Positions 7,704 through 56,300 of a stretch of DNA of 64,000 nucleotides are shown here, one piece after another. The stretch spans positions 14,146 to 78,145 of the forward strand of contig DATLSZ010000020.1 in assembly GCA_035533875.1 (NCBI GenBank), read 5' to 3'. The notes under the pieces were generated by a model. It saw nothing but the letters and a program-made list of their open reading frames with translations. It made no database searches and was not told the DNA's origin. The translations under genes and the position numbers were made by a program. Within the stretch, counting starts at the first letter, position 1. Each line of letters starts with the position of its first letter. The stretch is from Candidatus Acidiferrales bacterium. Its GTDB lineage: Bacteria; Patescibacteriota; Microgenomatia; Levybacterales; UBA12049.

Positions 7704-7710
7704 AATGAGT

Positions 7711-7759
7711 TAGTGAATAGTGACTAGTAATTAGTGATTAGTAAAATCTAAACCTAAAA
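7711..7759. repeat. Tandem heptamer array (TAGTRAN family) in the hrcA 5' region
   Basis: TAGTGAA TAGTGAC TAGTAAT TAGTGAT TAGTAAA ATCTAAA CCTAAAA. Confidence 0.8.
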
Positions 7760-7804
7760 ACTGCCCCCTAAACGCTAATTTCGTAATCCGCTGAGCAAAT
7801 CGGA

Positions 7805-7841
7805 TTAGCAATAATATAGCACGAGTGCCAACTCTTGTCAA
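7805..7841 (-). promoter_or_regulatory. Putative hrcA promoter overlapped by a degenerate CIRCE operator
   Basis: Minus strand: TTGACA (7841..7836), 17 nt, TATATT (7818..7813). Plus strand: TTAGCAATA-N9-GAGTGCCAA (7805..7831), compared with the CIRCE consensus TTAGCACTC-N9-GAGTGCTAA (7/9 and 8/9 matches). Confidence 0.55.
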
Positions 7842-7930
7842 TAACACAAAGTATCTCATACTATTTTGTCTTATGATCTGTCGGACACATCTTGTGTTTG
7901 TTTTTTGTTTATTAAATAATTGGAAGTAAG

Positions 7931-15626: not shown

Positions 15627-17180
15627 ATGAGATTTCTGGCCTGTATAGAAAAAAAGAAATTTACTTGGGTACTTATTGTGCTCTGTGTAGCATTTTTCTT
15701 TTTACGTCTTCCATCACTCATTGAACCTTACTGGTATGGTGATGAAGGGGTGTATGAAGTTATCGGTCAAGCAATGGATCAAGGTCGGCTGCTTTATCAG
15801 GATATTTGGGATAACAAACCACCACTACTGTATACTATTTATGCCATAGCGCAAGGTGACCAGCAGGTCGTCGAAACAATATCTGCTTTCTTTGGAATTC
15901 TTGCTATCATCGGTATCTTCATACTCACACAAAACCTTTTTAATAAAACACGAATCAGTATACTATCATCTCTGGTCTTTGTCCTGCTCTTGGGTACTCC
16001 GCTTCTGGAAGGAAATATTGCCAATGCCGAAGTATTCATGCTTCCCTTCACTATCTTCGCCGGCTTACTCATCTATCAACACACAACTCAAACACAAAAT
16101 AATTCAAAACAATCTTCAATCTTTAATCTTCAATCTTTAATCTTTATTGCCGGCCTTCTCCTAGGCATCGCGTTCCTTTTTAAAATTGTTGCAATTTTTG
16201 ATTTCGCTGCGTTCTTCCTGTTTCTTCTCATTAACAGACTACCTGAAAAACTGTCTTGGAAATCATTTAAAAAGGCATTTGCCAAAAAACATTTGCCTAA
16301 TGCCCTATCTGTATGGAAGCAACCGCAAACACGGATATATCAATATATCATTGTCGGTTTTTTTCTTCCATTCATTTTGACAGTCATTTATTTCTTCTTA
16401 AATCATTCTTTAGTAGATTTTCTCCAGGCTGTATTCTTGGGAAACGTCGATTATGTTGCATGGGGTAATAGCCTCTTTGGACTTTCAAATGGATTGCTGT
16501 TACTCAAAATTGTAATCCTTGTCATTGGTCTCTCTGTAATTATTTGGAAAAGAAAACAGTTTTCCAAACCCGCACTCTTTATCTGGTTATGGATTCTCTT
16601 TTCAATATTTAGCGCGTTCTTTTCGGAACGTCCCTATACCCATTATGTTATTGTTCTCTTGCCGAGCTTTTGTTTATTGTTCGGTTTGATATTTACCGAA
16701 AAAAATATAAGAAGCCGTCTCATTGCGGCCGTAGGCATAATTGCTATTTTAGTGATTACTTCATTTCAATTTCAGTTCAATGTTCCCAAATCAATAGCGT
16801 ATTATCATAATGCGATTCAATTTGTGAAAGGATCTGAAAGCGTAGAAACATATCAATCCTTTTTTGACACCAAAACTCCTCGCGACTATATGGTCGCTAC
16901 ATTTATCAATGACCACACCTCACCTTCCGAAAATGTCTTTATTTGGGGAGACAGCCCCCAGATCTACGCACTTTCACATAAATTACCTCCAGGAAAATAT
17001 ACGGTTGCCTACCACATATCGCAAAATAATGCTGTTAACCAAACACAAATAGCTATCAATCGAGCAAAACCAAAATATATAATTGCATTGTCGGAAGCTC
17101 AACCCTTGCCGTTTGATCTTCCGCTCTATATAATGCGATACAATATATCCGGAGCGACAATTTATGAAAGGAGTTTCTGA
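15627..17180 (+). CDS. GT-C fold glycosyltransferase (ArnT/PMT, family 39/83-like)
   Basis: 517 aa, polytopic. The first-loop motif is PYWYGDEGVYEVIGQAM..GRLLYQDIWDNKPPLLY. Confidence 0.7.
   Translation: MRFLACIEKKKFTWVLIVLCVAFFFLRLPSLIEPYWYGDEGVYEVIGQAMDQGRLLYQDIWDNKPPLLYTIYAIAQGDQQVVETISAFFGILAIIGIFILTQNLFNKTRISILSSLVFVLLLGTPLLEGNIANAEVFMLPFTIFAGLLIYQHTTQTQNNSKQSSIFNLQSLIFIAGLLLGIAFLFKIVAIFDFAAFFLFLLINRLPEKLSWKSFKKAFAKKHLPNALSVWKQPQTRIYQYIIVGFFLPFILTVIYFFLNHSLVDFLQAVFLGNVDYVAWGNSLFGLSNGLLLLKIVILVIGLSVIIWKRKQFSKPALFIWLWILFSIFSAFFSERPYTHYVIVLLPSFCLLFGLIFTEKNIRSRLIAAVGIIAILVITSFQFQFNVPKSIAYYHNAIQFVKGSESVETYQSFFDTKTPRDYMVATFINDHTSPSENVFIWGDSPQIYALSHKLPPGKYTVAYHISQNNAVNQTQIAINRAKPKYIIALSEAQPLPFDLPLYIMRYNISGATIYERSF
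16114..16148. repeat. Tandem heptamer array inside the GT-C coding sequence
   Basis: CTTCAAT CTTTAAT CTTCAAT CTTTAAT CTTTATT belongs to the same family as the intergenic arrays at 6938 and 55373. It is translated as SSIFNLQSLIFI. Confidence 0.8.
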
Positions 17181-21271: not shown

Positions 21272-22068
21272 GCCCCGTGAATAATATCCTGTAGCTGTTT
21301 ATGCAGCTCAGGCGATGCGGTACAATAGGTAAAATATTCCTGTGTTCTTTTCAACGGGTTAGAATAGTCCAATAATTTACCATAATAATCAGTATACAAC
21401 CCGCCTGCTTCTTCAACAATTATCTGCGGTGCTATATTATCCCAAATTTTACTATTCTTATTGAGTGCGCCTCCATAACCACCCTTTGCAACCATAATGA
21501 TATCAAAAGCGCTATTACTTGAACGAAGATTTCTGATCGCCAGTACGAGATTTCCTACTATCTCAACTTCCTTTTTGGTCCCTATTGGATCTTCATGATG
21601 CCCATCTATGCCATATGCGATCAAAGAATCCCGCAAATTTATTTCCCTTGAAACAGAGATTTTTTTACCGTTGCAAAAGGCACCTTGTCCTTTTTCCGCA
21701 ATCGTTATTTCTTTAAAATAAGGTAGTGCAATCCCACCCGCAATTGGTGTATTTCCATCCAATAAACCTAGCATAATGCCATAGGTCGGGACACCACTTG
21801 CGAAATTACTTGTCCCATCGATTGGATCAACGACCCAAGTAAATTGTGAACCATTATCAATTACCCCCGCTTCCTCATCGATAACATTATATTCAGGATA
21901 GTCTCGTTTTATTTTTTCTACAATGAGTTTGCCAATTGCCAAATCCGCCTCTGTCAGAACTTGATTGGGGTCATGTTCTTTGATAAAACCCGATACGTTA
22001 CCAAACTTCGCATCAGCAATTATTGATGCATCTTCCAGAACAGATTGTATGAAGGACTGATAGTTCAT
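21268..22068 (-). CDS. suhB: Inositol monophosphatase family protein
   Basis: WVVDPIDGTSNF motif. 266 aa. Confidence 0.8.
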   Translation of the reverse strand: MNYQSFIQSVLEDASIIADAKFGNVSGFIKEHDPNQVLTEADLAIGKLIVEKIKRDYPEYNVIDEEAGVIDNGSQFTWVVDPIDGTSNFASGVPTYGIMLGLLDGNTPIAGGIALPYFKEITIAEKGQGAFCNGKKISVSREINLRDSLIAYGIDGHHEDPIGTKKEVEIVGNLVLAIRNLRSSNSAFDIIMVAKGGYGGALNKNSKIWDNIAPQIIVEEAGGLYTDYYGKLLDYSNPLKRTQEYFTYCTASPELHKQLQDIIHGA

Positions 22069-24329
22069 GCAGTTGCTATGCCAAACGACTCGAGTGTGCC
22101 GCCGCAGTATTTCATTATCATATCACAAGATTCCTGCAGAGATTTTTCCACCTGTTCCGGGGTAATATCATAAACGCCGTCGACATTGATATAGAGATTT
22201 TTTGTCGATTCCTTCACTGCTGTTCGCTGCGCGTCGCGGAAATTGAAATCGATATTGAATCCTCCCTTTTGATCAAAATATGCGATCTCAGACTCTTTAT
22301 ATTTCGTTGGTTCCGTATCTCCCAGTAGAAGTATCTCTTCATCATTTTTTGCCAAACGAAGCTCCGTTGGGAACTCAATCGTATCCAAATCAAACGCTCC
22401 GACTGAAACGCGATGCTGCATCACAACAAGATTGTATGCATCAACACAAGTGTTAATTGCATACAAACCCTTATTAAGAGCAACTCTCCTAAGAAGCGCT
22501 TCCGGACTAGGCCTTCGGGAATGCCAGTCAATCCCCATTGCTTTATATAATTTTCTATAATCCAAAACCTCAGGGAATTGTCCCAGTTGTTCGGTAGTCA
22601 GGTCCTTTAATGAATCTAGTAATTGTTGTTTTTCTTTTTCCAATTCAGGATTTGATTTGGTAATCGAAACTCCCTTTATAATAGCTACTCCAATAGAGAT
22701 CGAAGGATATTTTTCTTTCAATTCATTAGACAAAAAGAATATTTCCGGTTTATGAAAAACCTGTACTTTTTGTAATTCCTGATTCCTAATTCCTGGTTTC
22801 TGATTCATTTTTGCAACTTCCTCAAAGCGCTTCTTCACAAACTCCTTATCCAGCGAGAGGATCAACCATGCCGCTTTCGGTCCATGATCTTTACCAATCA
22901 ATGCTTTATAGATAGCGGCAAATGTTTCCTTGCCGTTTAAACCTATTTCTTTCCCCATCTCATAAATGCGTGTTTGGAAAGACTCAGCATCATTTACCGA
23001 ATCCAATTCAGCAGCAATTTTTTGTAAAAGTTCTTTCTGTTTGTCCGTCAAATCACGTGCCTTCTCTGGCAATGTTTCCTGTACCAAAAACTTTTCCGAT
23101 TCCGGAGCATACCGTTCAATCCAAACCCGCGCATATTTCGCCCATTCCGAAAGATCCGCTTTTTCAATTTGCTCCTGCATGTTGGGCATCTGCACCCACT
23201 GCGCAAGAACTGAAAAACGTACAGTTGGCGGTTTCTTTACGTCACCTATTTGAGAGAGCTCATATATCCGTGCCAATTCTTTATCCGATTTTGTGTCATA
23301 TGCAACAGCTGCCTGTTGATATTCATCAAATAACGTAGGAATTGTATTTTTTTCTGCCGGATCAAAATTAATTGCATGATTTAATTTTGTCCGTGCAATT
23401 AAAAATCTAACTAACTGCGGTGGAAGCACTTCAAGTAAATCAACAACAGATGTACCCATTCCTTTGGATGAAGACATCTTCTTCCCACCGACAAGAAAAA
23501 ATTCATGTGCAAAGCCATAGGGAACCGGATAATCCAAAACTTGTTTGCAAACTTTCTCAGCCAAATCATGTGAACCGCCTTTTGTCATATGATCCTTCCC
23601 TGCTCCTTCAACAGTTACACCGATGGCCTGCCATTTGACCGGCCATTCAATTTTCCAGGGTAGTTTGCCATTAATGGTATCTTTTGTCGCAAAGGGTGAT
23701 ATTTTTCCTTTATATCCACACCCTTTTGTCCATTTCACCGCATCAATATGACATTCAAAAGTAACATGTTCACCATCCCAATCAGTAACACGAGTCGTTG
23801 GTATTTTATGACATTGAGGACAGTAAACATTAAATGGATACCAATCATCAGCCATTTTCTTTTTATAAAGCTCTTCATAAAATGTTCTAATAAGTGCTGC
23901 TTTATCCAAACATTTTTTAATTCCTTCATTCATTTTCCCTGAAAAATATAAGTCTGTACCCCAAATAATTTTCGGATGACAGCCGATTGCATTAAAACCT
24001 TTTTCAAATTCCTTTGCATAGAACTGCGCAAATGTTCCATCACCAACGGGCGCGGGGATCATAAATAAAGGATAACCGAGATATTTTTCATAAATAGATT
24101 TATCGAGATAATGAGGCAACTTATCCAACGGATCCTGACTTTCAAAAACATAACTAAATGTCGCATTTTCTCCGGCATCAACAAGAGCTTTATAGACAAG
24201 ATCATGTGTCGTAACCGCACGCAAAGAACCGACATGGATTCTCCCTGAAGGAGTTTTCATATCATCAACCCACGCAAGTGGTAGGTTTTTCTTTTTAATA
24301 TCTTGTGCAATTTTATCAGCCCAAAACAT
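22065..24329 (-). CDS. lysK: Class I lysyl-tRNA synthetase fused to a C-terminal B3/B4 (PheT-type tRNA-binding/editing-like) domain
   Basis: The N-terminal ~520 aa carry TPSGRIHVGSLR and the KMSSSKG (KMSKS) motif in a class I LysRS layout. The extra ~230 aa include RPSPEALLRRVALNKGLYAINTCVDAYNLVVMQHRVSVGAFDLD, which is typical of B3_4 domains. Confidence 0.85.
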   Translation of the reverse strand: MFWADKIAQDIKKKNLPLAWVDDMKTPSGRIHVGSLRAVTTHDLVYKALVDAGENATFSYVFESQDPLDKLPHYLDKSIYEKYLGYPLFMIPAPVGDGTFAQFYAKEFEKGFNAIGCHPKIIWGTDLYFSGKMNEGIKKCLDKAALIRTFYEELYKKKMADDWYPFNVYCPQCHKIPTTRVTDWDGEHVTFECHIDAVKWTKGCGYKGKISPFATKDTINGKLPWKIEWPVKWQAIGVTVEGAGKDHMTKGGSHDLAEKVCKQVLDYPVPYGFAHEFFLVGGKKMSSSKGMGTSVVDLLEVLPPQLVRFLIARTKLNHAINFDPAEKNTIPTLFDEYQQAAVAYDTKSDKELARIYELSQIGDVKKPPTVRFSVLAQWVQMPNMQEQIEKADLSEWAKYARVWIERYAPESEKFLVQETLPEKARDLTDKQKELLQKIAAELDSVNDAESFQTRIYEMGKEIGLNGKETFAAIYKALIGKDHGPKAAWLILSLDKEFVKKRFEEVAKMNQKPGIRNQELQKVQVFHKPEIFFLSNELKEKYPSISIGVAIIKGVSITKSNPELEKEKQQLLDSLKDLTTEQLGQFPEVLDYRKLYKAMGIDWHSRRPSPEALLRRVALNKGLYAINTCVDAYNLVVMQHRVSVGAFDLDTIEFPTELRLAKNDEEILLLGDTEPTKYKESEIAYFDQKGGFNIDFNFRDAQRTAVKESTKNLYINVDGVYDITPEQVEKSLQESCDMIMKYCGGTLESFGIATA

Positions 24330-42391: not shown

Positions 42392-43876
42392 ATGGCAATC
42401 CTACCCCATTATAACCTTATCGCTAAAAAACTCAAAAAGGTACTAAAATCCAAAAAATTCAGCTTTGGCAAAAAACACTTCAAAGTTTTTGGGAAAAACA
42501 TCTTTTGGTTCAGTTTGGGAGGTGCACTCGGATTATTCTTCTTCGTCAGTTTTCTCTATATTGCATACGAAAAAATTCACGTCAACAGTGTCTATAACGG
42601 TGTTTTTGTGGACGGGGTAAATTTCGGTGGAAAAGATCCGGAACAAATACAAGACTACTTCCTCACAAAAAACAGAATCATACAAAAAACAACAATCACC
42701 CTAAGGTCCAACGACCAAACGATTGCAACAATCTCCGCAAGACAAATAGATTTTGGCTATGATGAAAATCTCCTCGCGGACCAGGCAATGACCGTCGGTC
42801 GATCAGGAAATAACGCTATTACCAATATAAGCCTTATTGTGCAGGCGTATTTCAATACAATTGATCTGCCACCCGCATACCATTACTCTGAGCAAAAACT
42901 CAATGACTACCTTGATCAAGTCAAGAAAAAAACAGACGTGCCACCGGTTAATCCACTCTTTAATTTCCAAGGTGGCAAAGTCGTCACCTTCCGTACCGGC
43001 ACTGACGGAAAAATGCTTGATGAGGAAACACTCAAAAATGAAATTCTTGATAAATTGAAAGAATCCGTATTGACGAATAGTACACAACAGCTTGTGCTGG
43101 CAATGCCCGTCCAAACAATCCACGCAAAAAGTGCAACGGATGAGGCAAACCGTCTAGGAATCAAAGAAGAAGTCTCTGAAGGAACCTCTCTATTCCATCA
43201 TTCGGCAACTGAACGTATTTTTAATGTCGCGCTTGCTGCAAGCCGATTAAATGGCGTCATTATCAAACCCGGCGAAATTTTTTCATTTGATAAAACGGTC
43301 GGTGATATTTCTTCTCTCTCGGGGTACAAACAAGCGTATGTCATTGAAAACGGCAAGACTGTCCTTGGCGACGGTGGAGGCGTCTGCCAAGTATCAACAA
43401 CCCTCTTCAGAGCGGCGCTCAATGCAGGCCTCCCCATCGTTGAACGACACCAGCACGCATATCGTGTCGGGTATTATGAAGAAGATTCAGGTCCTGGCAT
43501 TGATGCAGCAATTTACTCACCAACCGTTGACTTGAAATTCAAAAATGATACCGGACACGCTTTGTTAATACAAACCATCGTTGATTTTTCAGCGCAGCGG
43601 CTTACGTTTGCGCTGTATGGAACAAAAGATACCAACCGACAAATAAGTATCTCAACACCTGTTGTACTGTCGGAAACTCCTGCACCGCCGCCATTGTATC
43701 AGGATGATCCAACGCTTGCTGCAGGACAAATAAAACAAGTCGATTTTGCCGCTGCAGGCGCGGATGTCTACTTCACCCGTACTGTAACAGAGAATGACAA
43801 AGTAACTATCTATGATAAATTTACTTCGGATTACAAACCATGGCAGGCAATATACATGCGGGGAACGAAGAGTTAA
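42392..43876 (+). CDS. VanW-family protein with a G5-like C-terminal domain
   Basis: An N-terminal TM precedes the VanW core PGEIFSFDKTVGDIS...GGGVCQVSTTLFRAALNAGLPIVERHQH. An AAGGAG Shine-Dalgarno sequence lies upstream. Confidence 0.8.
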   Translation: MAILPHYNLIAKKLKKVLKSKKFSFGKKHFKVFGKNIFWFSLGGALGLFFFVSFLYIAYEKIHVNSVYNGVFVDGVNFGGKDPEQIQDYFLTKNRIIQKTTITLRSNDQTIATISARQIDFGYDENLLADQAMTVGRSGNNAITNISLIVQAYFNTIDLPPAYHYSEQKLNDYLDQVKKKTDVPPVNPLFNFQGGKVVTFRTGTDGKMLDEETLKNEILDKLKESVLTNSTQQLVLAMPVQTIHAKSATDEANRLGIKEEVSEGTSLFHHSATERIFNVALAASRLNGVIIKPGEIFSFDKTVGDISSLSGYKQAYVIENGKTVLGDGGGVCQVSTTLFRAALNAGLPIVERHQHAYRVGYYEEDSGPGIDAAIYSPTVDLKFKNDTGHALLIQTIVDFSAQRLTFALYGTKDTNRQISISTPVVLSETPAPPPLYQDDPTLAAGQIKQVDFAAAGADVYFTRTVTENDKVTIYDKFTSDYKPWQAIYMRGTKS

Positions 43877-43902
43877 TTTTCAATTTACAATTTGCAATTT
43901 TC
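43875..43902. repeat. Tandem heptamer array (AATTTNC family)
   Basis: AATTTTC AATTTAC AATTTGC AATTTTC. It is followed by the palindrome AAGGGATCCCTT and a looser 7-nt-periodic ATTGAAA tract (43956..44004). Confidence 0.75.
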
Positions 43903-44006
43903 CCAAAGGGATCCCTTCGGGACAATCAATAATCAATTTCTTAATGTTTTAAACTTTGAAAATTGAATCATTGAAAATTCAATAAAAATTAAAAATTGAA
44001 AAATTT

Positions 44007-44489
44007 ATGGGACAAATTATAAATATTGAAAAAGTTGATCTAATAACCTCAAAACTACAAGCACAAAATAAACAGATAGTTTTGGCCGGGGGCTGCTTCG
44101 ATCTTCTTCATATCGGTCACATTACGTTTCTTGAAAAGGCGAAAAAACTTGGTGACTTACTGGTGATATTACTTGAATCTGATGAAACAATCACTGCGAG
44201 CAAAGGCGCGAACCGGCCGATCAATTCACAAGCAGATCGGGCAAAAATTCTTTCCGCATTACTGTCGGTTGATATTGTTATATTACTCAGTCCGAAGATG
44301 ACAGATAAGGAGTATGATGCGCTGGTATTTGCCATAAAACCTGCTATAATCGCAACAACAAGCGGTGATATGCAGAGACATCATAAAGAGCGGCAAGCCA
44401 AACAAATAGGTGCTCACGTAGTAGATGTCACCATGCCCATATCAGACAAGTCGACAACAAAATTAGTAAACTTGTTAAATGAATTATAA
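44007..44489 (+). CDS. Cytidylyl/adenylyltransferase-like protein (CTP_transf_like family)
   Basis: 160 aa. AGGCFDLLHIGHITFLEKAK supplies the (T/H)xGH motif. The substrate is unknown. Confidence 0.7.
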   Translation: MGQIINIEKVDLITSKLQAQNKQIVLAGGCFDLLHIGHITFLEKAKKLGDLLVILLESDETITASKGANRPINSQADRAKILSALLSVDIVILLSPKMTDKEYDALVFAIKPAIIATTSGDMQRHHKERQAKQIGAHVVDVTMPISDKSTTKLVNLLNEL

Positions 44490-44507
44490 AACTAGACGCT
44501 AATTTTT

Positions 44508-44972
44508 ATGAGTCTTAACAAAATCATCATAGGTTTTATCATTATCCTTTTATTATTCAGCGGGTACATTTTGTATCAGATCAATCAGACACCGCTCCCC
44601 AAATCAAAAGTAACAATCGACAATCATACTTTTATGGTTGAAGTAGCGACAACATCTGCGCAACAGCAACAAGGATTATCTGGAAGAGCATCACTTCCCC
44701 AAAATCAAGGCATGCTTTTTATATTTAAAACGCCAGACCGGTATCCGTTCTGGATGAAAGACATGAGGTTCCCTCTCGATATGATTTTTATCAATGACAA
44801 TAAAATCGTAACTATTTTCCAAAATGTCCCAACTCCTGTTCAGGGCAAAACCAATCTGCCTGTTTATGCTCCAAGTTCACCCGCCAATCAAGTACTGGAA
44901 ATCAACGCCGGTACCGCCAAGCAATTTGACTTTAAGAAGGGTGACACTGTCAAAGTAGACCTCAAACAATAA
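44508..44972 (+). CDS. DUF192-family protein, membrane-anchored
   Basis: 154 aa. An N-terminal TM is followed by GLSGR...GMLFIF...FWMKDMRFPLDMIFI, the DUF192 pattern. Confidence 0.6.
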   Translation: MSLNKIIIGFIIILLLFSGYILYQINQTPLPKSKVTIDNHTFMVEVATTSAQQQQGLSGRASLPQNQGMLFIFKTPDRYPFWMKDMRFPLDMIFINDNKIVTIFQNVPTPVQGKTNLPVYAPSSPANQVLEINAGTAKQFDFKKGDTVKVDLKQ

Positions 44973-44990
44973 ATCTTCTTGCATCACGAA

Positions 44991-44999
44991 TGGTATAAT
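44991..44999 (+). promoter_or_regulatory. Extended -10 box TGGTATAAT, 5 nt upstream of the tsaD ATG
   Basis: The sequence TGGTATAAT-agcgt-ATG implies a leaderless or near-leaderless transcript. Confidence 0.5.
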
Positions 45000-45004
45000 A
45001 GCGT

Positions 45005-46093
45005 ATGACAATCCTGGGAATCGAAACAAGCTGTGATGAAACGGCAGTCGCTATCGTACAAGGTCATGAGGATCATGTTGAGTTAAAAACAAACGTACTA
45101 GCAACATCACTAGCCCTTCATGCCAAAACTGGTGGCATAATTCCAGAGCAGGCGGCACGGGAACAAATAAAATATATCCTCCCCACGCTAAAAAAAGCAC
45201 TTGATACCTCTGATACTTTTAATGCCTTAGAACAAATAGATGCCATCGCAGTCACGTACGGCCCAGGGCTGATAGGATCACTTCTCGTCGGTGTTGAAAC
45301 AGCAAAGACCCTGGCGTTTGTCTTGAACAAGCCTATCATCCCCGTCAATCACATGGTCGGCCACATCTATGCCAACTTTATTGCCACGTCATTGCGAGGA
45401 GGAACGACGAAGCAATCCCAAACGAGATTGCCGCACTTCGCCCGCAATGACGATATCAAATTTCCCGCACTCGCTCTCGTTGTTTCAGGCGGACATACCG
45501 ATCTTTTGTTAATAAAAAAACACGGTAACTTCGAGCTAATCGGCGGCACTCGTGATGACGCCGCAGGAGAAGCATTTGATAAAATCGGCAGAATGCTTGG
45601 ACTAGCGTATCCGGCCGGACCGGAAATTGAACGCCTTGCAAAACTCGGAGACCCCAAACGCTTCCGTTTCCCTCGCCCGCTTCTTCATGAAGATACCTAT
45701 GAATTCTCCTTTTCCGGCCTTAAAACAGCCGTTCTCAGAGAAGTTACAAATCTTAATACTCAAAACTCAGAACTAAACGCTCACACAATCAAGGATCTCG
45801 CCCGTGCCACCCAAGACGCTATCATTGAAGTACTTGTTAAAAAAACACTGAGAGCAGCCAAAGAACACAACGTCAAATCAATCCTCCTCTCAGGCGGTGT
45901 CGCAGCAAATCAAACATTGAGAGAACAATTTAAACGAGACGCTAGACGCTCTATGCTAGACGCTGAGATTTTTGCACCGCAAAAATCTCTCTGTACCGAT
46001 AACGCGGCAATGATCGCATCGGCAGCATATTTTAATTTCAACCCTGTTCCGTGGAATGAGGTAACCGCCGACCCTGAATTATATTTTGAATAA
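45005..46093 (+). CDS. tsaD: tRNA N6-adenosine threonylcarbamoyltransferase TsaD, carrying a palindromic-element insertion
   Basis: ILGIETSCDETAVAIV, VSGGHT and a C-terminal CTDNAAMIA. The extra segment ATSLRGGTTKQSQTRLPHFARNDD is encoded by the element at 45388..45451. Confidence 0.92.
   Translation: MTILGIETSCDETAVAIVQGHEDHVELKTNVLATSLALHAKTGGIIPEQAAREQIKYILPTLKKALDTSDTFNALEQIDAIAVTYGPGLIGSLLVGVETAKTLAFVLNKPIIPVNHMVGHIYANFIATSLRGGTTKQSQTRLPHFARNDDIKFPALALVVSGGHTDLLLIKKHGNFELIGGTRDDAAGEAFDKIGRMLGLAYPAGPEIERLAKLGDPKRFRFPRPLLHEDTYEFSFSGLKTAVLREVTNLNTQNSELNAHTIKDLARATQDAIIEVLVKKTLRAAKEHNVKSILLSGGVAANQTLREQFKRDARRSMLDAEIFAPQKSLCTDNAAMIASAAYFNFNPVPWNEVTADPELYFE
45388..45451. mobile_element. Second copy of the palindromic repeat element, inside tsaD
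   Basis: GTCATTGCGAGG ... CCCGCAATGAC termini with the inner GCAATC/GATTGC pair. It belongs to the same family as 13350..13427 and is read in a different frame at its 5' side. Confidence 0.75.
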
Positions 46094-46127
46094 ACATTTC
46101 CAGTTTTTCTAAAAGTATTTCGTGAAC

Positions 46128-46252
46128 GAGGAATAAATTTTTTCGCAAGGACGAATGCCACCTCGCCATTATTATAAAATCAAGAGAAACTAATGCAATA
46201 CCCCGAATACTAAAAACAATGAATGATGGGTCCAAGAAAAAATTTTGTTCCG
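46128..46252. repeat. AU-rich inverted-repeat element (copy X) upstream of the CAP-domain gene
   Basis: GAGGAATAAATTTTTT (46128..46143) pairs with AAAAAATTTTGTTCCG (46237..46252). It is related to 51792..51851. Confidence 0.55.
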
Positions 46253-46317
46253 AGTGAGAAATAACACTGATTTGCCCCGTGCAATCGATAAAAATTCGTG
46301 TTATATTGGTATAAATT

Positions 46318-46935
46318 ATGGGAAGACGATTGTCCTATATCTTACTCAGCTTTTTGATACTTACCGTCTTCTCAACCCACACCGTCTCCGCAGCCCAACA
46401 GCAAAATATACCAACCTTTTTCTCTTTTCTTGAAAATTATCTCCTCGCCTTTACTTCCATTACATCATATAACAACAAAGTTCTTGCTGCCCATACAGCG
46501 TCCCCAACAAACCAGCCTCCTACGCACCATTCACAACCATCTCCTCAGCTAACGCCACCACCAATCCAACAAAATGTATCTCTCTCAGATGTCTCATCGT
46601 ATATTTTGAATGGCGTCAATACGTATCGGTCATCACTCGGATTATCTCAGGTCCACGCAAGCAGCCAAACGTGTAACTTCGCCGCAACCCGCGCACTGGA
46701 AATAACAACCAGCTTCAGTCATGACGCATTTTATAGCCGGGTCAACAATCATACGATACCGTATTCATCCTGGTCACGTGCGGTTGAGAATATCGCGGAA
46801 GCACCCGATTATAAAGAGGTCGTCACGCTTTGGAAGAATTCACCCGGCCACGCCGCCAACATGCGGGACAATACACCATATGTCTGTATCATCCGAAACG
46901 GATCTTACTACGCCTATGAAGGCATGCGCCCCTAA
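46318..46935 (+). CDS. Secreted CAP/SCP (PR-1-like) domain protein
   Basis: A signal peptide and a Pro/Gln linker are followed by YRSSLGL..., AVENIAE and WKNSPGHAANM motifs. Confidence 0.7.
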   Translation: MGRRLSYILLSFLILTVFSTHTVSAAQQQNIPTFFSFLENYLLAFTSITSYNNKVLAAHTASPTNQPPTHHSQPSPQLTPPPIQQNVSLSDVSSYILNGVNTYRSSLGLSQVHASSQTCNFAATRALEITTSFSHDAFYSRVNNHTIPYSSWSRAVENIAEAPDYKEVVTLWKNSPGHAANMRDNTPYVCIIRNGSYYAYEGMRP

Positions 46936-46952
46936 ACGCTAAACGCTAAACG
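46932..46952. repeat. CTAAACG x3 tandem heptamer array
   Basis: Three perfect copies. The stop codon of the CAP gene (TAA, 46933..46935) lies inside the first unit. Confidence 0.9.
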
Positions 46953-46960
46953 CTCTCATA

Positions 46961-46969
46961 TGCTACAAT
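46961..46969 (+). promoter_or_regulatory. Extended -10 box TGCTACAAT, 6 nt upstream of the rmuC ATG (leaderless)
   Basis: The cassette AAACGCTCTCATATGCTACAATACCCCTATG is nearly identical to the one at 48799..48830. Confidence 0.6.
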
Positions 46970-46975
46970 ACCCCT

Positions 46976-48004
46976 ATGAATAACCTGCTCATCATTATTC
47001 TCATCATCGCCGGATTCGGGCTCCTCTATTATTTTCTTAATAAAAAGCTTTCCTCTCTCACCAAACAAGATACAGACCAAACTCTCCTCGAATGGCTGAA
47101 GACAATGCAGCAATCACTCGAAACAACAAACAAAACACTCAACGAATCCATGCAGGCAAATTCAACAACAATGGTCAGGACGCTTCAGGAAAATTCCAGG
47201 CAGCTCAATGACCGGCTTGATAAAGCTGCCGCAGTGATCAGAGACGTTGGACATGAAGTCGGACAGATGAGTGAAATCGGCCGCAGTATGAAAGAATTGC
47301 AGGACTTTCTCAAAAGCCCCAAGCTCCGAGGCAATATCGGTGAACAAGTGCTCAAAGACTTGATCACACAAATTTTCCCCAAGAATAGTTTTCATCTGCA
47401 GTACGAATTTGCGTCCGGTGAAAAAGTTGATGCCGCAATCCAAACCGATGCAGGCATTCTGCCGATTGATGCCAAATTCCCCATGGAAAATTTTCAAAGG
47501 TTATCCAAAGCCAAAACAGAAGATGAAACGAAAATACTGAGAAAAGATTTCTCACGGGATATTAAAAAGCATATCGACGCGATAGCCAAAAAATACATTT
47601 TGCCTACCGAAGGGACGATGGATTTTGCACTGATGTATGTTCCCTCCGAATCGGTCTTTTATGAAATTGTGAACATGGACGATCTCGTCGAATATGCAAG
47701 ACAACAGCGGGTATATATCGTTTCCCCGACCACGCTTTATGCGCACTTGCAGACAATCCTTCTATCTTATGAAGGACGGAAGATCGAAGAACAATCCAAA
47801 GAAATAGTAAAGCTTCTCCGCGGACTGCAGATTGATTATGAGAAAGTCAATGACTCCCTTGATGTCTTAGGCAAACACATCGGTAACGCATCCAACCAAT
47901 ACGTCAATGTCAATAAAAGTTTCCTTGGACTCGGACAAAAACTCTCAACGATCAAGCATCTTGGCAGTACAATAGAAAAGGGCGAACAAAAAAAGCTGGA
48001 GTAG
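46976..48004 (+). CDS. rmuC: DNA recombination protein RmuC
   Basis: 342 aa. An N-terminal TM and coiled coil are followed by a C-terminal nuclease-like domain (GE.VDAAI...PIDAKFP...MYVPSE). Confidence 0.8.
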   Translation: MNNLLIIILIIAGFGLLYYFLNKKLSSLTKQDTDQTLLEWLKTMQQSLETTNKTLNESMQANSTTMVRTLQENSRQLNDRLDKAAAVIRDVGHEVGQMSEIGRSMKELQDFLKSPKLRGNIGEQVLKDLITQIFPKNSFHLQYEFASGEKVDAAIQTDAGILPIDAKFPMENFQRLSKAKTEDETKILRKDFSRDIKKHIDAIAKKYILPTEGTMDFALMYVPSESVFYEIVNMDDLVEYARQQRVYIVSPTTLYAHLQTILLSYEGRKIEEQSKEIVKLLRGLQIDYEKVNDSLDVLGKHIGNASNQYVNVNKSFLGLGQKLSTIKHLGSTIEKGEQKKLE

Positions 48005-48050
48005 CAGAGCTTGATTACCATTACATAAAACGGTTAAAATAGAATCAACT

Positions 48051-48410
48051 ATGAACTTCGGAGGAATTATCCCAAAACCCAATATCATGATAAACCGTCC
48101 AAAAAAAATCAGTAATACCAGCAATCTGTACAAAATTCCTATCAGCCACACCAGTTTGGATGGAAAAACAACGAACCAATATGAAATTTGGACAACGAGA
48201 GAAGCCGTCCAACAGCATTTTCAAGGATTGACTGAAGAGCCAAAGGAATATGAACTCAAAAAATTTGCGCGGCAATTATACGAAAAACAATTACGCAGTA
48301 GCAAAGGTCCTCTTCAACATAAAGGCATTTTGGTAACTTCAGATAGTGTGACTCATGGCAATCCGCTTCTCTGGCCGAATAATATTTCACACCCGGAAGT
48401 GAAACTTTAA
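48051..48410 (+). CDS. Hypothetical protein
   Basis: A 119-aa ORF with no recognisable motif. Coding status is uncertain. Confidence 0.35.
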   Translation: MNFGGIIPKPNIMINRPKKISNTSNLYKIPISHTSLDGKTTNQYEIWTTREAVQQHFQGLTEEPKEYELKKFARQLYEKQLRSSKGPLQHKGILVTSDSVTHGNPLLWPNNISHPEVKL

Positions 48411-48731
48411 TTACTTCTGCAATATAAATGTCCCCATTGGACCAAAGCATTGTAATTCAGATCCTCGTTTTAACGAAAACAATGCTTTTTTAAAGCTGCT
48501 TTTCGTACGTCTTGTTGTAATCATCACACGCATTTCTCTTGGTGATGATGAAATGGTAAAAAAGCGAGTCGATCCTTCACTATCCGCATGCTCATGCGGC
48601 AGAGTTATCTGTACATATTGTCCCGCATGAAACTTGAATTCTTTCGGCGCACGGAAATAAAACGATGAGATATCGTTCATCAGCTTTTCTTTTTTAATAA
48701 ATGAGAGAAAAAATGGCTTTACCTTAACCAT
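48411..48731 (-). CDS. Isolated FAD-binding (FNR-like, FAD_binding_6-type) domain fragment, possibly a gene remnant
   Basis: 106 aa. FKFHAGQYVQITLP...RFFTISSSP...GPMGTF matches the N-terminal half of ferredoxin-reductase-type proteins. No NAD-binding half is present in any frame downstream. Confidence 0.5.
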   Translation of the reverse strand: MVKVKPFFLSFIKKEKLMNDISSFYFRAPKEFKFHAGQYVQITLPHEHADSEGSTRFFTISSSPREMRVMITTRRTKSSFKKALFSLKRGSELQCFGPMGTFILQK

Positions 48732-48755
48732 ACTGTTATTATACCAATCAACAAA

Positions 48756-48804
48756 CTAAACGCTAAACGCTAAACGCTAAACGCTAAACGCTAAACGCTA
48801 AACG
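48756..48804. repeat. CTAAACG x7 tandem heptamer array
   Basis: Seven perfect tandem copies (49 bp) immediately upstream of the promoter cassette. Confidence 0.95.
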
Positions 48805-48812
48805 CTCTCATA

Positions 48813-48821
48813 TGCTACAAT
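48813..48821 (+). promoter_or_regulatory. Extended -10 box TGCTACAAT, 6 nt upstream of the helicase ATG (leaderless)
   Basis: AAACGCTCTCATATGCTACAATACCTCCATG is a duplicate of the rmuC cassette. Confidence 0.6.
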
Positions 48822-48827
48822 ACCTCC

Positions 48828-51755
48828 ATGCCCGACTTGAGCTCACTCAACGAAGAACAAAAGCAAGCTGTCACCCACGGTACCGGCCCGTTGTTGATCA
48901 TCGCCGGTGCGGGAACAGGGAAGACAACGGTTATTACCAAACGCATAGAACATCTCATCCTTGATAAAAAAATACCCGCTTCCAATATCCTTGCACTCAC
49001 CTTCACCGAAAAGGCGGCCCAGGAGATGGAAACACGTATCGATGAAGTCCTCCCGTATGGATACACAACACTATGGATCGAGACGTTTCATGCATTCTGT
49101 GATAGGATTCTCAAACAAGAAGCAATTAATATTGGGTTAAACCCCCGGTTTGATCTGCTTAGTGAAGCAGAGTCGCTGTTGTTCCTGAGAAAACATTTAT
49201 TCGATTTCAAGCTTGATTATTACCGTCCGCTCGGAAACCCCATGAAATTTCTGCAGGGAATGCTCACCCATTTCTCACGTCTCAAAGACGACGACATCAC
49301 CCCTGAGCAATATCTAAACTATGCAAAAAAACGAGACGCTCAACATGCTCCGCTCGACGCTGATGAGGTAAAAAAAACTATTGAGCTTGCTCATGCATTT
49401 AAAATCTACGAAGATCTCAAGGCAAAAGAAGGCGTCATGGATTATTCAGATCTTATCAGTAATACCTTAAAACTGTTCCGTGATCGCCCATCGGTACTAC
49501 GACAATATCAAAAACAATTCCAGTATGTCTTTGTTGATGAATTCCAGGATACTAATTATGCCCAGAACGAAATGGCAATTCTCCTAGCTGGAGAGAGGCA
49601 AAATATTACGGTAGTCGGCGATGACGATCAAAGCATCTACCGCTGGCGTGGTGCTGCCATTGCCAATATGATGCAGTTCCGGACACACTTTCCAAAGGCC
49701 GAAATTGTGACTCTCACAAAAAATTACCGCTCAACACAGAGCGTTCTGGATGGTGCATATCAATTAATACAAAATAACAACCCCGACAGACTAGAGGTAA
49801 AAGAAAAAATAGACAAGAAACTTACTGCGATGCGGGAGATAAAAGGAGAACAGATCGAATTTATTTATGCCAACCGCGGGGAAGAAGAAGCAGAAACTGT
49901 CGCCAAAGCAATTCTTGCGGACATAAAAAAATCGAACCGGTCGTATAACGACTACGCAATTTTGGTCCGGGCAAATGACCATTCAACGCCATTCCAGCGA
50001 GCATTGGAACGAGCACGTATCCCCTACCAATTTCTCGGACCAGGCCATCTTTTCCAGCAGTCGGAAATCAAAGACTTGGTCGCCTATCTGCATGTATTGT
50101 CAAATTTTGATGATATGTCTTCACTGTACCGCATCATCACCATGCCGGTATTTGACCTGCAGGCACGCGACGTTGCATCGATTCTCAACTTTGCCAAACG
50201 TAGCAATTTTTCTCTCTTTGAGGCAATGGAACATGCTGATGAGTCTTCACTGACCGCAGACGGAAAAGAAAAAATACAGCGGATCACTGAGATGATCAAG
50301 AAGCATCTGGAAAAAGTTCCCAAAGAGGAAGCAGGACAGATCCTCTATCACTTTTTTGAAGACTCAGGACTTCTTGGACACTATCTCGACCCGGGATCGG
50401 CACGGACAGAAAAAGAAGCGCAGAACATCGCCAAATTTTTTGAAAAGCTGCAGAGCTTTGCCGCCAATCATACCGACGCATCGGTTTTTGCTGTCGTTGA
50501 CTGGCTTGACCTTTCAATGGAACTCGGGGAAAGCCCGCAGGCAGCCGAGATAGACTGGACGAGAAACAACGCAGTCAACATCCTCACCGTTCATGCGAGT
50601 AAAGGTCTTGAATTCCCCGTTGTGTTTGTCATCAATCTCGTATCCCAACGTTTTCCGAGTCGTGACCGTAAAGAACAAATACCTGTACCAACAGATATCA
50701 TTCGAGAATCATTACCCGAAGGAGAAGAAGGTCTCCAGGAGGAACGGAGACTTTTTTATGTCGCGATTACCCGAGCCAAAGACAAACTCTTTTTGACAGC
50801 ATCACGCTTCTATAATGAAGGCAAAAGAGAACGTAAGATCTCTCCATTCGTTATCGAAACTCTTGGTGAACAAACGGTGCAAGCAATTGTCAAAAAACAA
50901 ACAGCCGTCCCGCCTGGTCAACAACTCTCACTTTTGGAAGTACTCAACAGCAACATCCAAAACCAAAATGAAAATAAAAAACCTGAAACACCTAGCCCCT
51001 CGTCCCTCGTCCCTATCACTTACATCTCTTATTCCCAGCTCCAAACCTTTGAGACATGCCCACTGCATTACAAACTCCGATATATCCTCAACCTTCCGTC
51101 TCCTCCTTCACCTGCTTTGAGCTATGGAATTAGCGTACACAGTACGCTTCGTGATTATTTTCAACTGCTTTTACATAATCAAAAGCCAAAACCAGAAACC
51201 ATACAGGAACTGCTCAAAAAAAATTGGGTCAATCAAGGATTCACGAGTAAAACCCATGAGACTCAGACATTTGAGCAAGCACAAACAATGCTTGAAAAAT
51301 TTGCTAAACAAACAATCCAACATATGCCACTTACCCTGTCTGTAGAACTGCCGTTTAATTTTTGGCTGGACAAACTAAAAGTTGGAGGAAGAATTGACAG
51401 GATTGATAAGCTGGATGACGGACGGATTGAGATCATTGATTATAAAACAGGAAGAAACGTCCCGACAGAAAAAAAAGTCCGGGAAGACCTCCAGCTTTCG
51501 TTCTATGCGCTTGCAGCTGCGGAAGTACAAGACGGCATCCTTGGGAAAGATCCAGCAGATGTCCTTCTGACACTATATTATCTGGAAGAAGATAAAAAAA
51601 TCTCAACGACAAGAACTCGTGAAGATCTCGAAAAAGCAAAGACAGATATCCTTGCAAAAGTCGCAGAGATCCAGACAAGCGACTTCACATGCAGCCATAG
51701 TATCCTCTGCAAACACTGCGAGTACCAGATGCTCTGCCAGGCAGACCGGGCATAA
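48828..51755 (+). CDS. UvrD/PcrA-type superfamily 1 helicase fused to a C-terminal PD-(D/E)xK (Cas4/AddB-like, 4-Cys) nuclease domain
   Basis: Helicase motifs are AGAGTGKTT (Walker A), VDEFQDTN and TVHASKGLEFPVV. The C-terminal part has YSQLQTFETCPLHYKLRY, IIDYKTG and CKHCEYQMLC (C-x2-C-x5-C). Confidence 0.88.
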   Translation: MPDLSSLNEEQKQAVTHGTGPLLIIAGAGTGKTTVITKRIEHLILDKKIPASNILALTFTEKAAQEMETRIDEVLPYGYTTLWIETFHAFCDRILKQEAINIGLNPRFDLLSEAESLLFLRKHLFDFKLDYYRPLGNPMKFLQGMLTHFSRLKDDDITPEQYLNYAKKRDAQHAPLDADEVKKTIELAHAFKIYEDLKAKEGVMDYSDLISNTLKLFRDRPSVLRQYQKQFQYVFVDEFQDTNYAQNEMAILLAGERQNITVVGDDDQSIYRWRGAAIANMMQFRTHFPKAEIVTLTKNYRSTQSVLDGAYQLIQNNNPDRLEVKEKIDKKLTAMREIKGEQIEFIYANRGEEEAETVAKAILADIKKSNRSYNDYAILVRANDHSTPFQRALERARIPYQFLGPGHLFQQSEIKDLVAYLHVLSNFDDMSSLYRIITMPVFDLQARDVASILNFAKRSNFSLFEAMEHADESSLTADGKEKIQRITEMIKKHLEKVPKEEAGQILYHFFEDSGLLGHYLDPGSARTEKEAQNIAKFFEKLQSFAANHTDASVFAVVDWLDLSMELGESPQAAEIDWTRNNAVNILTVHASKGLEFPVVFVINLVSQRFPSRDRKEQIPVPTDIIRESLPEGEEGLQEERRLFYVAITRAKDKLFLTASRFYNEGKRERKISPFVIETLGEQTVQAIVKKQTAVPPGQQLSLLEVLNSNIQNQNENKKPETPSPSSLVPITYISYSQLQTFETCPLHYKLRYILNLPSPPSPALSYGISVHSTLRDYFQLLLHNQKPKPETIQELLKKNWVNQGFTSKTHETQTFEQAQTMLEKFAKQTIQHMPLTLSVELPFNFWLDKLKVGGRIDRIDKLDDGRIEIIDYKTGRNVPTEKKVREDLQLSFYALAAAEVQDGILGKDPADVLLTLYYLEEDKKISTTRTREDLEKAKTDILAKVAEIQTSDFTCSHSILCKHCEYQMLCQADRA

Positions 51756-51791
51756 AAGATGATTAGCATGCTAGTAAGATAAGCAAAGCGA

Positions 51792-51851
51792 GGAACAAAT
51801 TTTTTTCGCAGAATGGATGACGAAGTCTGTATTCAAAAAAAAATTCGTTCC
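51792..51851. repeat. AU-rich inverted-repeat element (copy Y) upstream of the 51922 gene
   Basis: GGAACAAATTTTTTT (51792..51806) pairs with AAAAAAAAATTCGTTCC (51835..51851), about 15 bp with 1 mismatch. Differences from copy X keep the arms paired (C-G becomes U.G, A.C becomes A-U). Confidence 0.55.
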
Positions 51852-51921
51852 GAACGAAATAATAATACTTTGACAAACCGTCCCCTTGAAAAAAAAGCCC
51901 AAGTAAGCCACTATTATATAT

Positions 51922-52668
51922 GTGGGAATAAATACCGGCGCTCTCTATATCATCTTTATCATGCTCGCAATACTCGGAGTTTCGTATATATTGTCTGGTC
52001 CGACGCCAAGCCAAACACCAATCCTTACCGGCCCGGAAGTAGTAATTAATAAAAAACCGGCAAATAAAGCCCAGGCAGTACTGCAGCTTTATAACTTCAA
52101 CGGAGCAACGATCACCCCGCCGGTCACCTCACTATGCAAAAAAGGTGGAGCCAATGTCCATCCTGAAGCAATTGTTGCCTATTCACCTGCTCAGTCAAAT
52201 GCCGTCAGTGCATACGGTCAAATTAAGATCTGGGTCAGTGATACCAAACAGCCGTATATCGCACCCAATGAACAAATAATAAAAAGCTCCGGAGCGATCA
52301 AAACACCGGGGAATAGAGCAGCAACCGCACCTGACGGTTATCGATGGGAACCGCAGCTGTATGTCTTTCCGGCAACAGTAGAAAATAATGGCAAAGCCTA
52401 TTTTCCTGATCTTATTCAAGGAGACTATTTTAATGGGGCACCCAATGTCTCATACGGCAGTGATATTCTTCCACCCTATGCTCTTCCTCTCAGCTCATAT
52501 ACCGTTGAATTTGTATGGAATGTCAGTGACATTGGTTTGACGGACGGAGATTACGAAATCGAATTTGTAGTACATGACGGAAATCAAAAACTAGGCGTCA
52601 AATGTATGAATCTTCGTGTTTATACCCCGCCAGCAAGTCAGAACCAACAAAACAAACTCCCACTGTAG
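51922..52668 (+). CDS. Membrane-anchored uncharacterised surface protein (paralog A)
   Basis: 248 aa with a GTG start and an N-terminal TM. The ~190-aa domain is shared with 53748..54569 (AYSPA..GQIK[IV]WV[ST]D...IAP...ATAPDGY..EP.LY...YT.E[FY][IV]W[ND]VS..GL..G.Y..EF..HDG). Confidence 0.65.
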   Translation: MGINTGALYIIFIMLAILGVSYILSGPTPSQTPILTGPEVVINKKPANKAQAVLQLYNFNGATITPPVTSLCKKGGANVHPEAIVAYSPAQSNAVSAYGQIKIWVSDTKQPYIAPNEQIIKSSGAIKTPGNRAATAPDGYRWEPQLYVFPATVENNGKAYFPDLIQGDYFNGAPNVSYGSDILPPYALPLSSYTVEFVWNVSDIGLTDGDYEIEFVVHDGNQKLGVKCMNLRVYTPPASQNQQNKLPL

Positions 52669-55372: not shown

Positions 55373-55414
55373 TTTTAATCTTTAATCTTCAATCCTTAAT
55401 CTTCAATCTAATGT
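55373..55414. repeat. Tandem heptamer array that fills the spacer between the two permease genes
   Basis: TTTTAAT CTTTAAT CTTCAAT CCTTAAT CTTCAAT CTAATGT. The spacer is 42 nt, which is 6 x 7. Confidence 0.85.
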
Positions 55415-56213: not shown

Positions 56214-56241
56214 TAGCGGCTAGCTACTAGCTGCTAGCGTT
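56214..56241. repeat. Tandem heptamer array (TAGCNNC family)
   Basis: TAGCGGC TAGCTAC TAGCTGC TAGCGTT. Confidence 0.75.
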
Positions 56242-56265
56242 TGGTTAAATTTGTAAAAGTAAAAA

Positions 56266-56300
56266 CTAGACGCTCGACGCTAAACGCTAGATGCTTGATT
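56266..56300. repeat. Degenerate CTNNACG heptamer array that overlaps the 3' end of the ABC ATPase gene
   Basis: CTAGACG CTCGACG CTAAACG CTAGATG CTTGATT. The last units encode the C-terminal ...NQASSV and the stop codon. Confidence 0.8.

Follow-up and report, generated by a model that had tools for sequence, protein, structure and literature searches.

Heptanucleotide repeat arrays beside putative leaderless promoters of rmuC and a helicase–nuclease gene in a Patescibacteria-type genome

Leaderless genes with a -10 box directly 5' of the start codon are known in Actinobacteria and Deinococcus-Thermus, and GeneMarkS-2 reportedly (Lomsadze, 2018) models leaderless genes as having a -10 box upstream of the start. 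Heptanucleotide tandem repeats have been described elsewhere. The short tandemly repeated repetitive (STRR) heptamers of the cyanobacteria Calothrix and Nostoc and the GGGAATC repeats of Xanthomonas are intergenic and give an excess of period 7; their arrays occupy the same intergenic sites in related genomes, vary in length and sequence, are sometimes inverted, and have been proposed to result from polymerase slippage (PMC4692102). In Haemophilus influenzae, (ATCTTTC)n tracts lie at the promoters of the adhesin genes hmw1A and hmw2A, between two promoters and within the 5' untranslated region of the main transcript; they usually exceed 10 units, and the transcript level falls as n rises (PMC8262952). 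The subject of this analysis is a locus in a 64,000-nucleotide stretch of DNA, here called the window (positions 14,146 to 78,145 of contig DATLSZ010000020.1, assembly GCA_035533875.1), in which perfect CTAAACG arrays stand beside the promoters of two DNA-repair genes, rmuC and a gene for a helicase–nuclease (hereafter the helicase gene). The STRR and GGGAATC repeats are its closest structural and evolutionary analogue, and the hmw tracts its closest functional one. The locus presents, in a new lineage, a further case of two known phenomena, which here happen to adjoin; a search for literature on heptanucleotide repeats or leaderless genes in Saccharibacteria or Patescibacteria found nothing specific.

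An identical 20-nt sequence, CTCTCATATGCTACAATACC, follows both (CTAAACG)3 and (CTAAACG)7, and each block runs to an ATG (Table 1). The double CTAAACG heptamer is confined to these two sites in the window, with 8 overlapping matches where 0.02 were expected. Allowing 3 mismatches still gives exactly two occurrences of the 20-nt core (shuffled sequences contain none), and Tandem Repeats Finder gives a unit identity of 100% within both arrays. Before rmuC, the TG of the extended -10 lies at 46961-46962 and TACAAT at 46964-46969, followed by the six nucleotides ACCCCT and an ATG at 46976; before the helicase gene the TG is at 48813-48814 and TACAAT at 48816-48821, followed by ACCTCC and an ATG at 48828. 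At both genes, then, TACAAT ends 6 nt 5' of the ATG and the TG falls at -15/-14. A sequence-only reading of this DNA had described two such blocks, with n=3 before rmuC and n=7 before the helicase–nuclease gene; the sequence, repeat and core counts agree with that description, and the extended -10 that it placed 6 nt before the ATG in both copies can be read directly in the sequence. Five contigs of the same species around rmuC (L001-L005) share the rmuC copy, and those that reach the helicase gene (L001-L004) share that copy too; the block is therefore not an artefact of a single assembly. Proteins identical to those of the window are also found on soil-metagenome contigs. The genome is compact, with a G+C content of ~42% and 6.8% intergenic sequence, and the first heptamer of the rmuC array contains the TAA stop (46933-46935) of the CAP-domain gene upstream. 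The helicase reading frame matches UvrD-helicase, UvrD_C and PDDEXK_1 in Pfam, and in NCBIfam it matches pcrA best, at 492 bits and under the family cut-off.

Table 1. Features of the two array–promoter blocks and their neighbouring genes (window coordinates)
Feature	Position	Strand	Remarks
CAP-domain gene, upstream of rmuC	46318..46935	+	ORF (open reading frame) list; Pfam CAP, E 2.5e-07
(CTAAACG)3 perfect heptanucleotide microsatellite	46932..46952	+	-44 to -24 from rmuC ATG
Junction CTCTCA and extended -10 promoter of rmuC	46953..46975	+	CTCTCATATGCTACAATACCCCT
rmuC, 342 amino acids	46976..48004	+	Pfam RmuC, E 1.5e-53
Divergent extended -10	48738..48746	-	TGGTATAAT; 6 nt before ATG of 106-amino-acid ORF
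(CTAAACG)7 perfect heptanucleotide microsatellite	48756..48804	+	-72 to -24 from helicase ATG
Junction CTCTCA and extended -10 promoter of helicase gene	48805..48827	+	CTCTCATATGCTACAATACCTCC
UvrD/PcrA-type superfamily 1 helicase with C-terminal PD-(D/E)XK (Cas4/AddB-like) nuclease domain, 975 amino acids	48828..51755	+	

On balance we favour an account in which ancestral promoters of leaderless type and separate, hypermutable microsatellites, the latter acting mostly as neutral spacer, lie side by side at each gene. The promoter half of this account can be followed in the syntenic CAP-rmuC-(hypothetical)-helicase regions of seven related species, whose RmuC proteins are 84-89% identical to that of the window. 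In these relatives TATGCTACAATA, followed by 5-6 nt and ATG, has been kept at both genes; the motif reads TATG(C/T)TACAATA, then 5 nt (6 at the helicase gene of L011), then ATG. Across the two genes in eight species, the distance from the -10 to the ATG is 6 nt in 15 of 16 gene copies and 7 nt in the remaining one, the L011 helicase gene. The spacers themselves are ACCCCT, AGCGCT, AGGCTC and AGCACT at rmuC, and ACCTCC, ACCTGC and ACCTCTT at the helicase gene. The rmuC orthologues of the relatives use the equivalent ATG as start. Immediately 5' of the promoter motif the sequence is unrelated between species, at both genes. A -10 box held at a fixed distance from the ATG, with nothing conserved upstream of it, is the footprint predicted for a leaderless promoter.

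The same architecture recurs in the window. TAnAAT is found 4-7 nt before the start codon of 8 of 57 window genes, against 0.34 expected from internal ATGs, and tsaD retains a TGnTATAATA-N4-5-ATG of its own in five species. The 6 nt before the rmuC and helicase ATGs (ACCCCT and ACCTCC) contain no Shine–Dalgarno sequence. Neither site yielded a canonical -35/-10 pair in a standard promoter scan, since the array covers the -35 position with the bases AAACGC. Canonical promoters exist too: hrcA has TTGACA, a 17-nt spacer, TATATT and an element resembling CIRCE (controlling inverted repeat of chaperone expression). A scan of the plus strand from 46100 to 49000 found no intrinsic terminator. Leaderless initiation at the rmuC and helicase genes, which the sequence-only reading had proposed, is well supported as a prediction by the TGCTACAAT-to-ATG geometry kept at both genes in seven species, and the mRNAs of rmuC and of the helicase–nuclease gene would each begin without a leader. 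Like the leaderless genes of Actinobacteria and Deinococcus-Thermus, those considered here have a TAnnnT box fixed 5-7 nt from the ATG, lack a Shine–Dalgarno sequence and conserve this geometry among orthologues. They differ in belonging to another phylum and in having a TG extension and no -35 match, and their starts are deduced from sequence.

The region between rmuC and the helicase gene holds a further, divergent extended -10 of leaderless type (48738-48746), 9 nt from the start of the helicase array. The 106-amino-acid minus-strand reading frame that it precedes (48411-48731) looks fragmentary, matching only the FAD-binding domain (FAD_binding_6) of flavin reductases in Pfam and NCBIfam. 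The segment 48411-48755 is absent from the seven related species, in which the hypothetical gene, rmuC or an EamA gene directly precedes the helicase gene.

With one mismatch allowed, ATGCTACAATA occurs also 5' of a class I lysyl-tRNA synthetase gene, the 3 matches in all being within chance. A shared repair-regulon motif, or SOS-type box, was rejected on this account, and ATGCTACAATA is read instead as a strong promoter consensus. The synthetase is fused to a C-terminal B3/4 domain (754 amino acids, window 22065-24329, minus strand), and its gene is preceded by a leaderless-type promoter, GGCTACAATA-N6-ATG.

The arrays behave quite otherwise from the promoters that they abut. At the helicase promoter (CTAGTCC)n is found in L008, L009 and L010; L012-L014 have (CCTAGCA)n at rmuC and CCTAGCG/CCTAGTC at the helicase gene, and L019 has a degenerate remnant. 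Both genes lack an array in L011 and L016. In L018 the helicase gene has none and rmuC no more than 2 short units, and in L008 it is rmuC that lacks one; in each case the promoters are kept. Copy number also varies between samples of one species. An alignment of L008 and L009 over 8,429 columns is free of differences save for a 28-nt (4-unit) indel, which makes the helicase array 3 units long in L008 and 7 in L009, and L010 agrees with L009. Over 11,031 columns L012 and L013 differ by 1 substitution and a 14-nt array indel, their rmuC arrays having 6 and 4 units, respectively, and L014 carries a third rmuC allele, with 5 units and one fewer CCTTGA. Since alleles differ among near-identical contigs, changes in array length outpace all the point substitutions of 8-11 kb taken together. 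Imperfect arrays, those in the spacers of hrcA-grpE-dnaK-dnaJ, in contrast show no length change among six conspecific contigs in one case and two in another, although these contigs are 5-106 substitutions apart. That variation is seen in pure arrays and not in imperfect ones is the purity dependence expected of slippage. Heptamer arrays would thus arise and change by replication slippage, in 7-bp steps and at a rate exceeding that of point substitution. They would fill the unconstrained spacer between the end of the upstream gene, or the divergent promoter, and the -10.

Every contig of the window's own species that reads across an array has n=3 at rmuC (L001-L005 and L029-L032) and n=7 at the helicase gene (L001-L004, L026 and L155). 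Two further contigs of this species, L006 and L033, come from one k=127 assembly (ERZ924426) and have ends inside arrays. L033 stops after gcgccc(CTAAACG)3CT; L006 begins CG(CTAAACG)4CTCTCAT... and ends ...caacaaa(CTAAACG)9CT, which gives at least 4 units at rmuC and at least 9 at the helicase gene, and its interior is 100% identical to the window. These ends are suggestive of longer or mixed alleles in the ERZ924426 sample. Copy-number polymorphism of the kind expected of a contingency locus is therefore present in the sister species and only suggestive in the window's own. The array length anticipated to be variable has proved so: near-identical contigs of sister species have 3 versus 7, and 6, 4 or 5 units, and a single assembly of the window's species has the at least 4 and at least 9 units just described.

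The repeats also leave their mark on assemblies. Several de Bruijn contigs (L006, L033, L027, L028 and L034) end inside arrays or where the two array–promoter blocks diverge, short-k Logan contigs break at arrays as well, and an N gap stands at the rmuC array of L015, which comes from an NCBI assembly. Heptamer repeats fragment the assemblies of this lineage.

The two arrays belong to a much larger population. The window contains 16 period-7 arrays, against 1.1 in dinucleotide shuffles (the next commonest period, 9, accounts for 8 arrays against 2.3), and six related species contribute 17 period-7 arrays in 75 kb. Of the window's arrays, 10 of 16 fall within the 6.8% of the sequence that is intergenic (P = 1.2e-8), where arrays make up ~7.5% of the bases. 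Their sites include the region 5' of hrcA, the hrcA-grpE spacer, the dnaK-dnaJ spacer (where they form an inverted pair), the surroundings of ABC-transporter genes and the flank of a cytidylyltransferase gene; others lie inside the reading frames of tsaD, lysyl-tRNA synthetase and a PMT_2 glycosyltransferase. Each genome reuses a few unit families at several loci. A CTAAACG/CTAGACG family is present at 46932, 48756, 45937 and 56266, an AATCTTN family at five window sites, and CTAGTCC, in L008 and L012, at the helicase promoter as well as in tsaD. In relatives, arrays recur between the same genes with varying length and sequence, as in the regions upstream of rmuC and the helicase gene and in the dnaK-dnaJ spacer. 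Furthermore, at least 119 species-representative genomes, belonging to many phyla, contain (CTAAACG) arrays of at least 3 and as many as 18 units, so that this lineage is not alone in having either the unit or the phenomenon. A link between the repeats and DNA repair finds no support in this wider distribution, which takes in the hrcA-grpE-dnaK-dnaJ spacers, the ABC-transporter spacers and the interiors of reading frames.

In all these respects (excess of period 7, intergenic bias, dispersal of units and sharing of sites among relatives) the arrays agree with those of the STRR/GGGAATC type. As there, most arrays are intergenic and near the starts or ends of genes, the unit is dispersed over many loci, and some arrays form inverted pairs. 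The differences are that the host probably belongs to the Patescibacteria, or candidate phyla radiation (CPR), and that the units are not G-rich, cannot form G-quadruplexes and contain CTA(A/G). In addition, the present arrays abut promoters predicted to be leaderless, and their hypermutability relative to substitutions is shown directly by the comparison of contigs.

The position of the arrays bears on what a change in length might do. With +1 placed at the A of the ATG, the -10 hexamer spans -12 to -7, the TG is at -15/-14, and the array stops at -24 and supplies AAACGC at the -35 position for any n of at least 2. In sigma-70 promoters an extended -10 normally makes the -35 dispensable. At the two genes the extended -10 (TG-n-TACAAT) has no -35 match, and the predicted transcription start is the A of the ATG or a neighbouring base. 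As the array ends at -24 and the -35 bases are constant for n of at least 2, copy number leaves the core promoter unchanged. The array lies outside both the -10/-35 spacer and the reading frame, save for the stop codon of the upstream gene, which is not the geometry of a contingency locus. The effect of copy number on expression should, on this layout, be modest, and on/off switching is unlikely. A residual effect may come about through contacts of the alpha subunit with A-tracts in the array, through the spacing to the divergent promoter at 48738-48746, or through a read-through transcript from the CAP-domain gene. Measured between centres, the -10 boxes of the divergent and helicase promoters are separated by 78 bp at n=7, a distance that n=3 would shorten to 50 bp.

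A mostly neutral spacer sits less comfortably with several observations. Each unit rotates the upstream DNA by ~240 degrees, which matters if that DNA contacts RNA polymerase. The alleles differ by 1, 2 and 4 units, none of them a multiple of three, and helical phase to the upstream DNA is therefore not preserved; either the upstream DNA is irrelevant or output changes with each step. In several species, moreover, these two promoters again have arrays, built of different units (CTAAACG, CTAGTCC and CCTAGCA), and the position could favour the repeat or select for it. Finally, the case for variation within the window's own species comes from two contig ends of a single k=127 assembly, which may be an assembly artefact.

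The alternative which fares best is that repeat number tunes the transcription of rmuC and the helicase–nuclease gene, giving a population heterogeneous in its capacity for recombination and repair. We regard this as unlikely, albeit worth serious consideration. Perfect tracts immediately 5' of the promoters, a copy number that is polymorphic between near-identical genomes and the recurrence of arrays at the same two promoters in several species all speak for such tuning. The hmw loci offer a parallel, in that two paralogous genes there have a heptanucleotide repeat abutting the promoter and a transcript that falls as n rises (PMC8262952). Were the CAP-domain gene read through, the rmuC array would become intercistronic RNA, like the hmw repeat in the P2 transcript. 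Set against this are the position of the array outside the -10/-35 spacer and the reading frame, a -35 sequence that stays constant for n of at least 2 beside an extended -10 that normally dispenses with it, and the kept promoters of L011 and L016, which have no arrays, and of L018, which nearly lacks them (no more than 2 short units at rmuC). Arrays of the same class in housekeeping operon spacers and reading frames fit a general mutational process better than selected switches, and the sense-strand RNA of the two arrays is unstructured (z = -0.31 and +0.50).

Cultivated members of the lineage have been reported as naturally competent episymbionts. In a bolder form of the tuning hypothesis, heptamer tracts set against leaderless promoters without a -35 would act as heritable, reversible rheostats in a CPR lineage poor in transcription factors, and at rmuC and the helicase gene would create subpopulations that differ in recombination and repair capacity; this we consider distinctly improbable. 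The likeness to hmw1A and hmw2A is nonetheless close in form, since in both systems a perfect 7-bp repeat abuts the promoter, two genes per genome are concerned and copy number is polymorphic between strains. Here, in contrast, the tract is upstream of a single promoter that lacks a -35 and is predicted to be leaderless, and it has 3-7 units (possibly at least 9). The genes are housekeeping repair genes rather than those for surface adhesins, and arrays of the same class are scattered throughout the genome. An effect on expression has been shown for hmw, whilst the present locus is known from its sequence alone.

Another possibility is that the heptads are iterated sites for a cooperative repressor and that the genes sharing a unit form a regulon, perhaps one responding to DNA damage. 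The ribbon-helix-helix omega protein binds WATCACW heptads, and the omega repressor of plasmid pSM19035 has heptad operators. The resemblance extends to contiguous 7-bp direct repeats (inverted elsewhere) immediately upstream of promoters. The CTAAACG unit does precede two repair genes, the window has several heptad families, and AATCACT, AATTACT, AGTCACT and ATTCACT on the minus strand at 7710-7742 resemble the omega heptad. An operator should, however, have a heptad conserved across promoters and species, and none is found here. Close species have different units at the same promoter (CTAAACG, CTAGTCC and CCTAGCA), and in L012 the units of the two co-located genes differ as well (CCTAGCA at rmuC, CCTAGTC at the helicase gene). 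L011 and L016 have no arrays at either gene, and L018 has none at the helicase gene and no more than 2 short units at rmuC. Unlike omega operators, arrays also lie in reading frames: CTAAACG-like units occur inside tsaD, and they are found at the end of an ABC-transporter gene as well. Together with the occurrence of (CTAAACG) arrays of at least 3 units in at least 119 species of many phyla, this leaves an operator array very improbable.

The sequence-only reading had spoken of a duplicated cassette, and the exact identity of the array and the next 20 nt at the two loci invites the view that a mobile or recently duplicated promoter cassette, a whole array and promoter block of 47-75 nt, was inserted before both genes. 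The promoter part ATGCTACAATACC[C/T]C[T/C]ATG, however, is already common to both promoters in relatives such as L008, and it is present at both genes in relatives that have other arrays or none; it is ancestral at each gene, and only the array and the junction CTCTCA are newly and specifically shared in the window's species. There are only two copies in the window, and the block has neither flanking terminal repeats nor target-site duplications. The core CGCTCTCATATGCTACAATAC has 0 matches in 185,579 species-representative genomes, and its sole match in the metagenome collection is a contig of the same species (L007). To the question, raised in the sequence-only reading, of which other genes the cassette precedes, the search of genomes and metagenomes gave none beyond rmuC and the helicase gene. 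Little credence can be given to cassette insertion on this evidence. The most likely and simplest account of the shared unit and junction is the copying of one array. Gene conversion or template switching may have placed a copy of one array beside the promoter of the other gene, over a distance of 1.85 kb, a process that could have been anchored on the 14-nt identity already existing between the promoters.

A role as RNA structure was rejected, the sense RNA of both arrays being no more structured than shuffles by the scores given above, and DNA-uptake sequences were dropped because units differ between close species and stand in tandem. The lack of YC dinucleotides in CTAAACG likewise disposed of Rho-utilisation sites. 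On the antisense strand the long array shows some folding (z = -2.6), which relies on G-U pairs and was given no weight; no Rfam family reaches threshold in 44000-52000.

If ancestral leaderless promoters beside hypermutable spacer repeats are indeed what the locus contains, soil Saccharimonadales-like CPR bacteria use conserved, extended -10 leaderless promoters, a point of consequence for the calling of gene starts and for expression tools in a group where genetic work is only now becoming feasible. Heptamer microsatellites would then be a measurable share of scarce intergenic DNA, potential strain markers, and a cause of contig breaks and gaps. The locus is also a caution that two repeat tracts sharing a unit need not be a regulatory cassette. 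Should repeat length after all tune the repair genes, they would be rare examples of repeat-controlled genome-maintenance genes in uncultured episymbionts.

The taxonomic labels of related sequences call for comment. A metagenome-assembled genome (MAG) with proteins P0001 and P0121, identical to those of the window, is labelled 'Candidatus Acidoferrales bacterium' at NCBI. The labels of identical or near-identical proteins disagree, naming Acidoferrales, Sulfotelmatobacter, Saccharimonadales and Levybacteria, and most named relatives are Saccharimonadales, Levybacteria or Patescibacteria, names that recur among the relatives of RmuC and DnaK. Following this majority, we take the source to be an uncultured soil bacterium of the Patescibacteria (CPR), probably of the Saccharimonadales. 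The Acidoferrales-named MAG is likely to have a wrong bin or taxon label.

Other arrays have features of their own. Arrays abut start or stop codons at 6936-6967, 7710-7742, 43875-44005, 55374-55409 and 56220-56295, with units AGATTNA, TCACTAN, AATTTNC, CTAGCTN and CTAGACG, at grpE, hrcA, cytidylyltransferase and ABC-transporter genes; several of them leave no space for a recognisable -10 or Shine–Dalgarno sequence. Arrays internal to reading frames lie at 16111-16146, 22775-22806, 45937-45964 and 50997-51014 in the window, and at L008 3641-3671, L011 1895-1924 and L012 3552-3582 in relatives. The CTAGTCC array in tsaD of the relatives is translated as an LVPSPQSLIP-like insert in a loop of variable length, and the window's tsaD array (AGACGCT) replaces a variable segment with its length unchanged. 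The units CTAAACG, CTAGTCC and CCTAGCA all contain CTA(A/G) and, at n of at least 3, place stops in all six frames, a property to which no function is assigned.

Upstream of hrcA (7744-7930; L164 2488-2717; L156 2684-2727), TTGACA-17-TATATT overlaps the CIRCE-like TTGGCACTC. The hrcA leader is ~110 nt longer in the window's species than in a sister species, and the extra part holds heptamer arrays. In the dnaK-dnaJ spacer (4425-4491; L156 5903-6045) inverted AAGATTN/AATCTTN arrays could form a stem-loop of ~30 bp; they are followed by a GC hairpin with a T-run and then by a TATAAT promoter for dnaJ. A sister species has kept this arrangement, with some changes in sequence. Pairing of (CTAAACG)3-6 with an inverted TAGCGNN array, which lies a few bases 5' of it, is seen in Omnitrophota, several CPR groups and a gammaproteobacterium (L038, L087, L093, L099, L104, L135, L144 and L147). 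These pairs would form a long hairpin built of heptamers, and most of them end within ~15 nt of an ATG; L093 has no ATG nearby.

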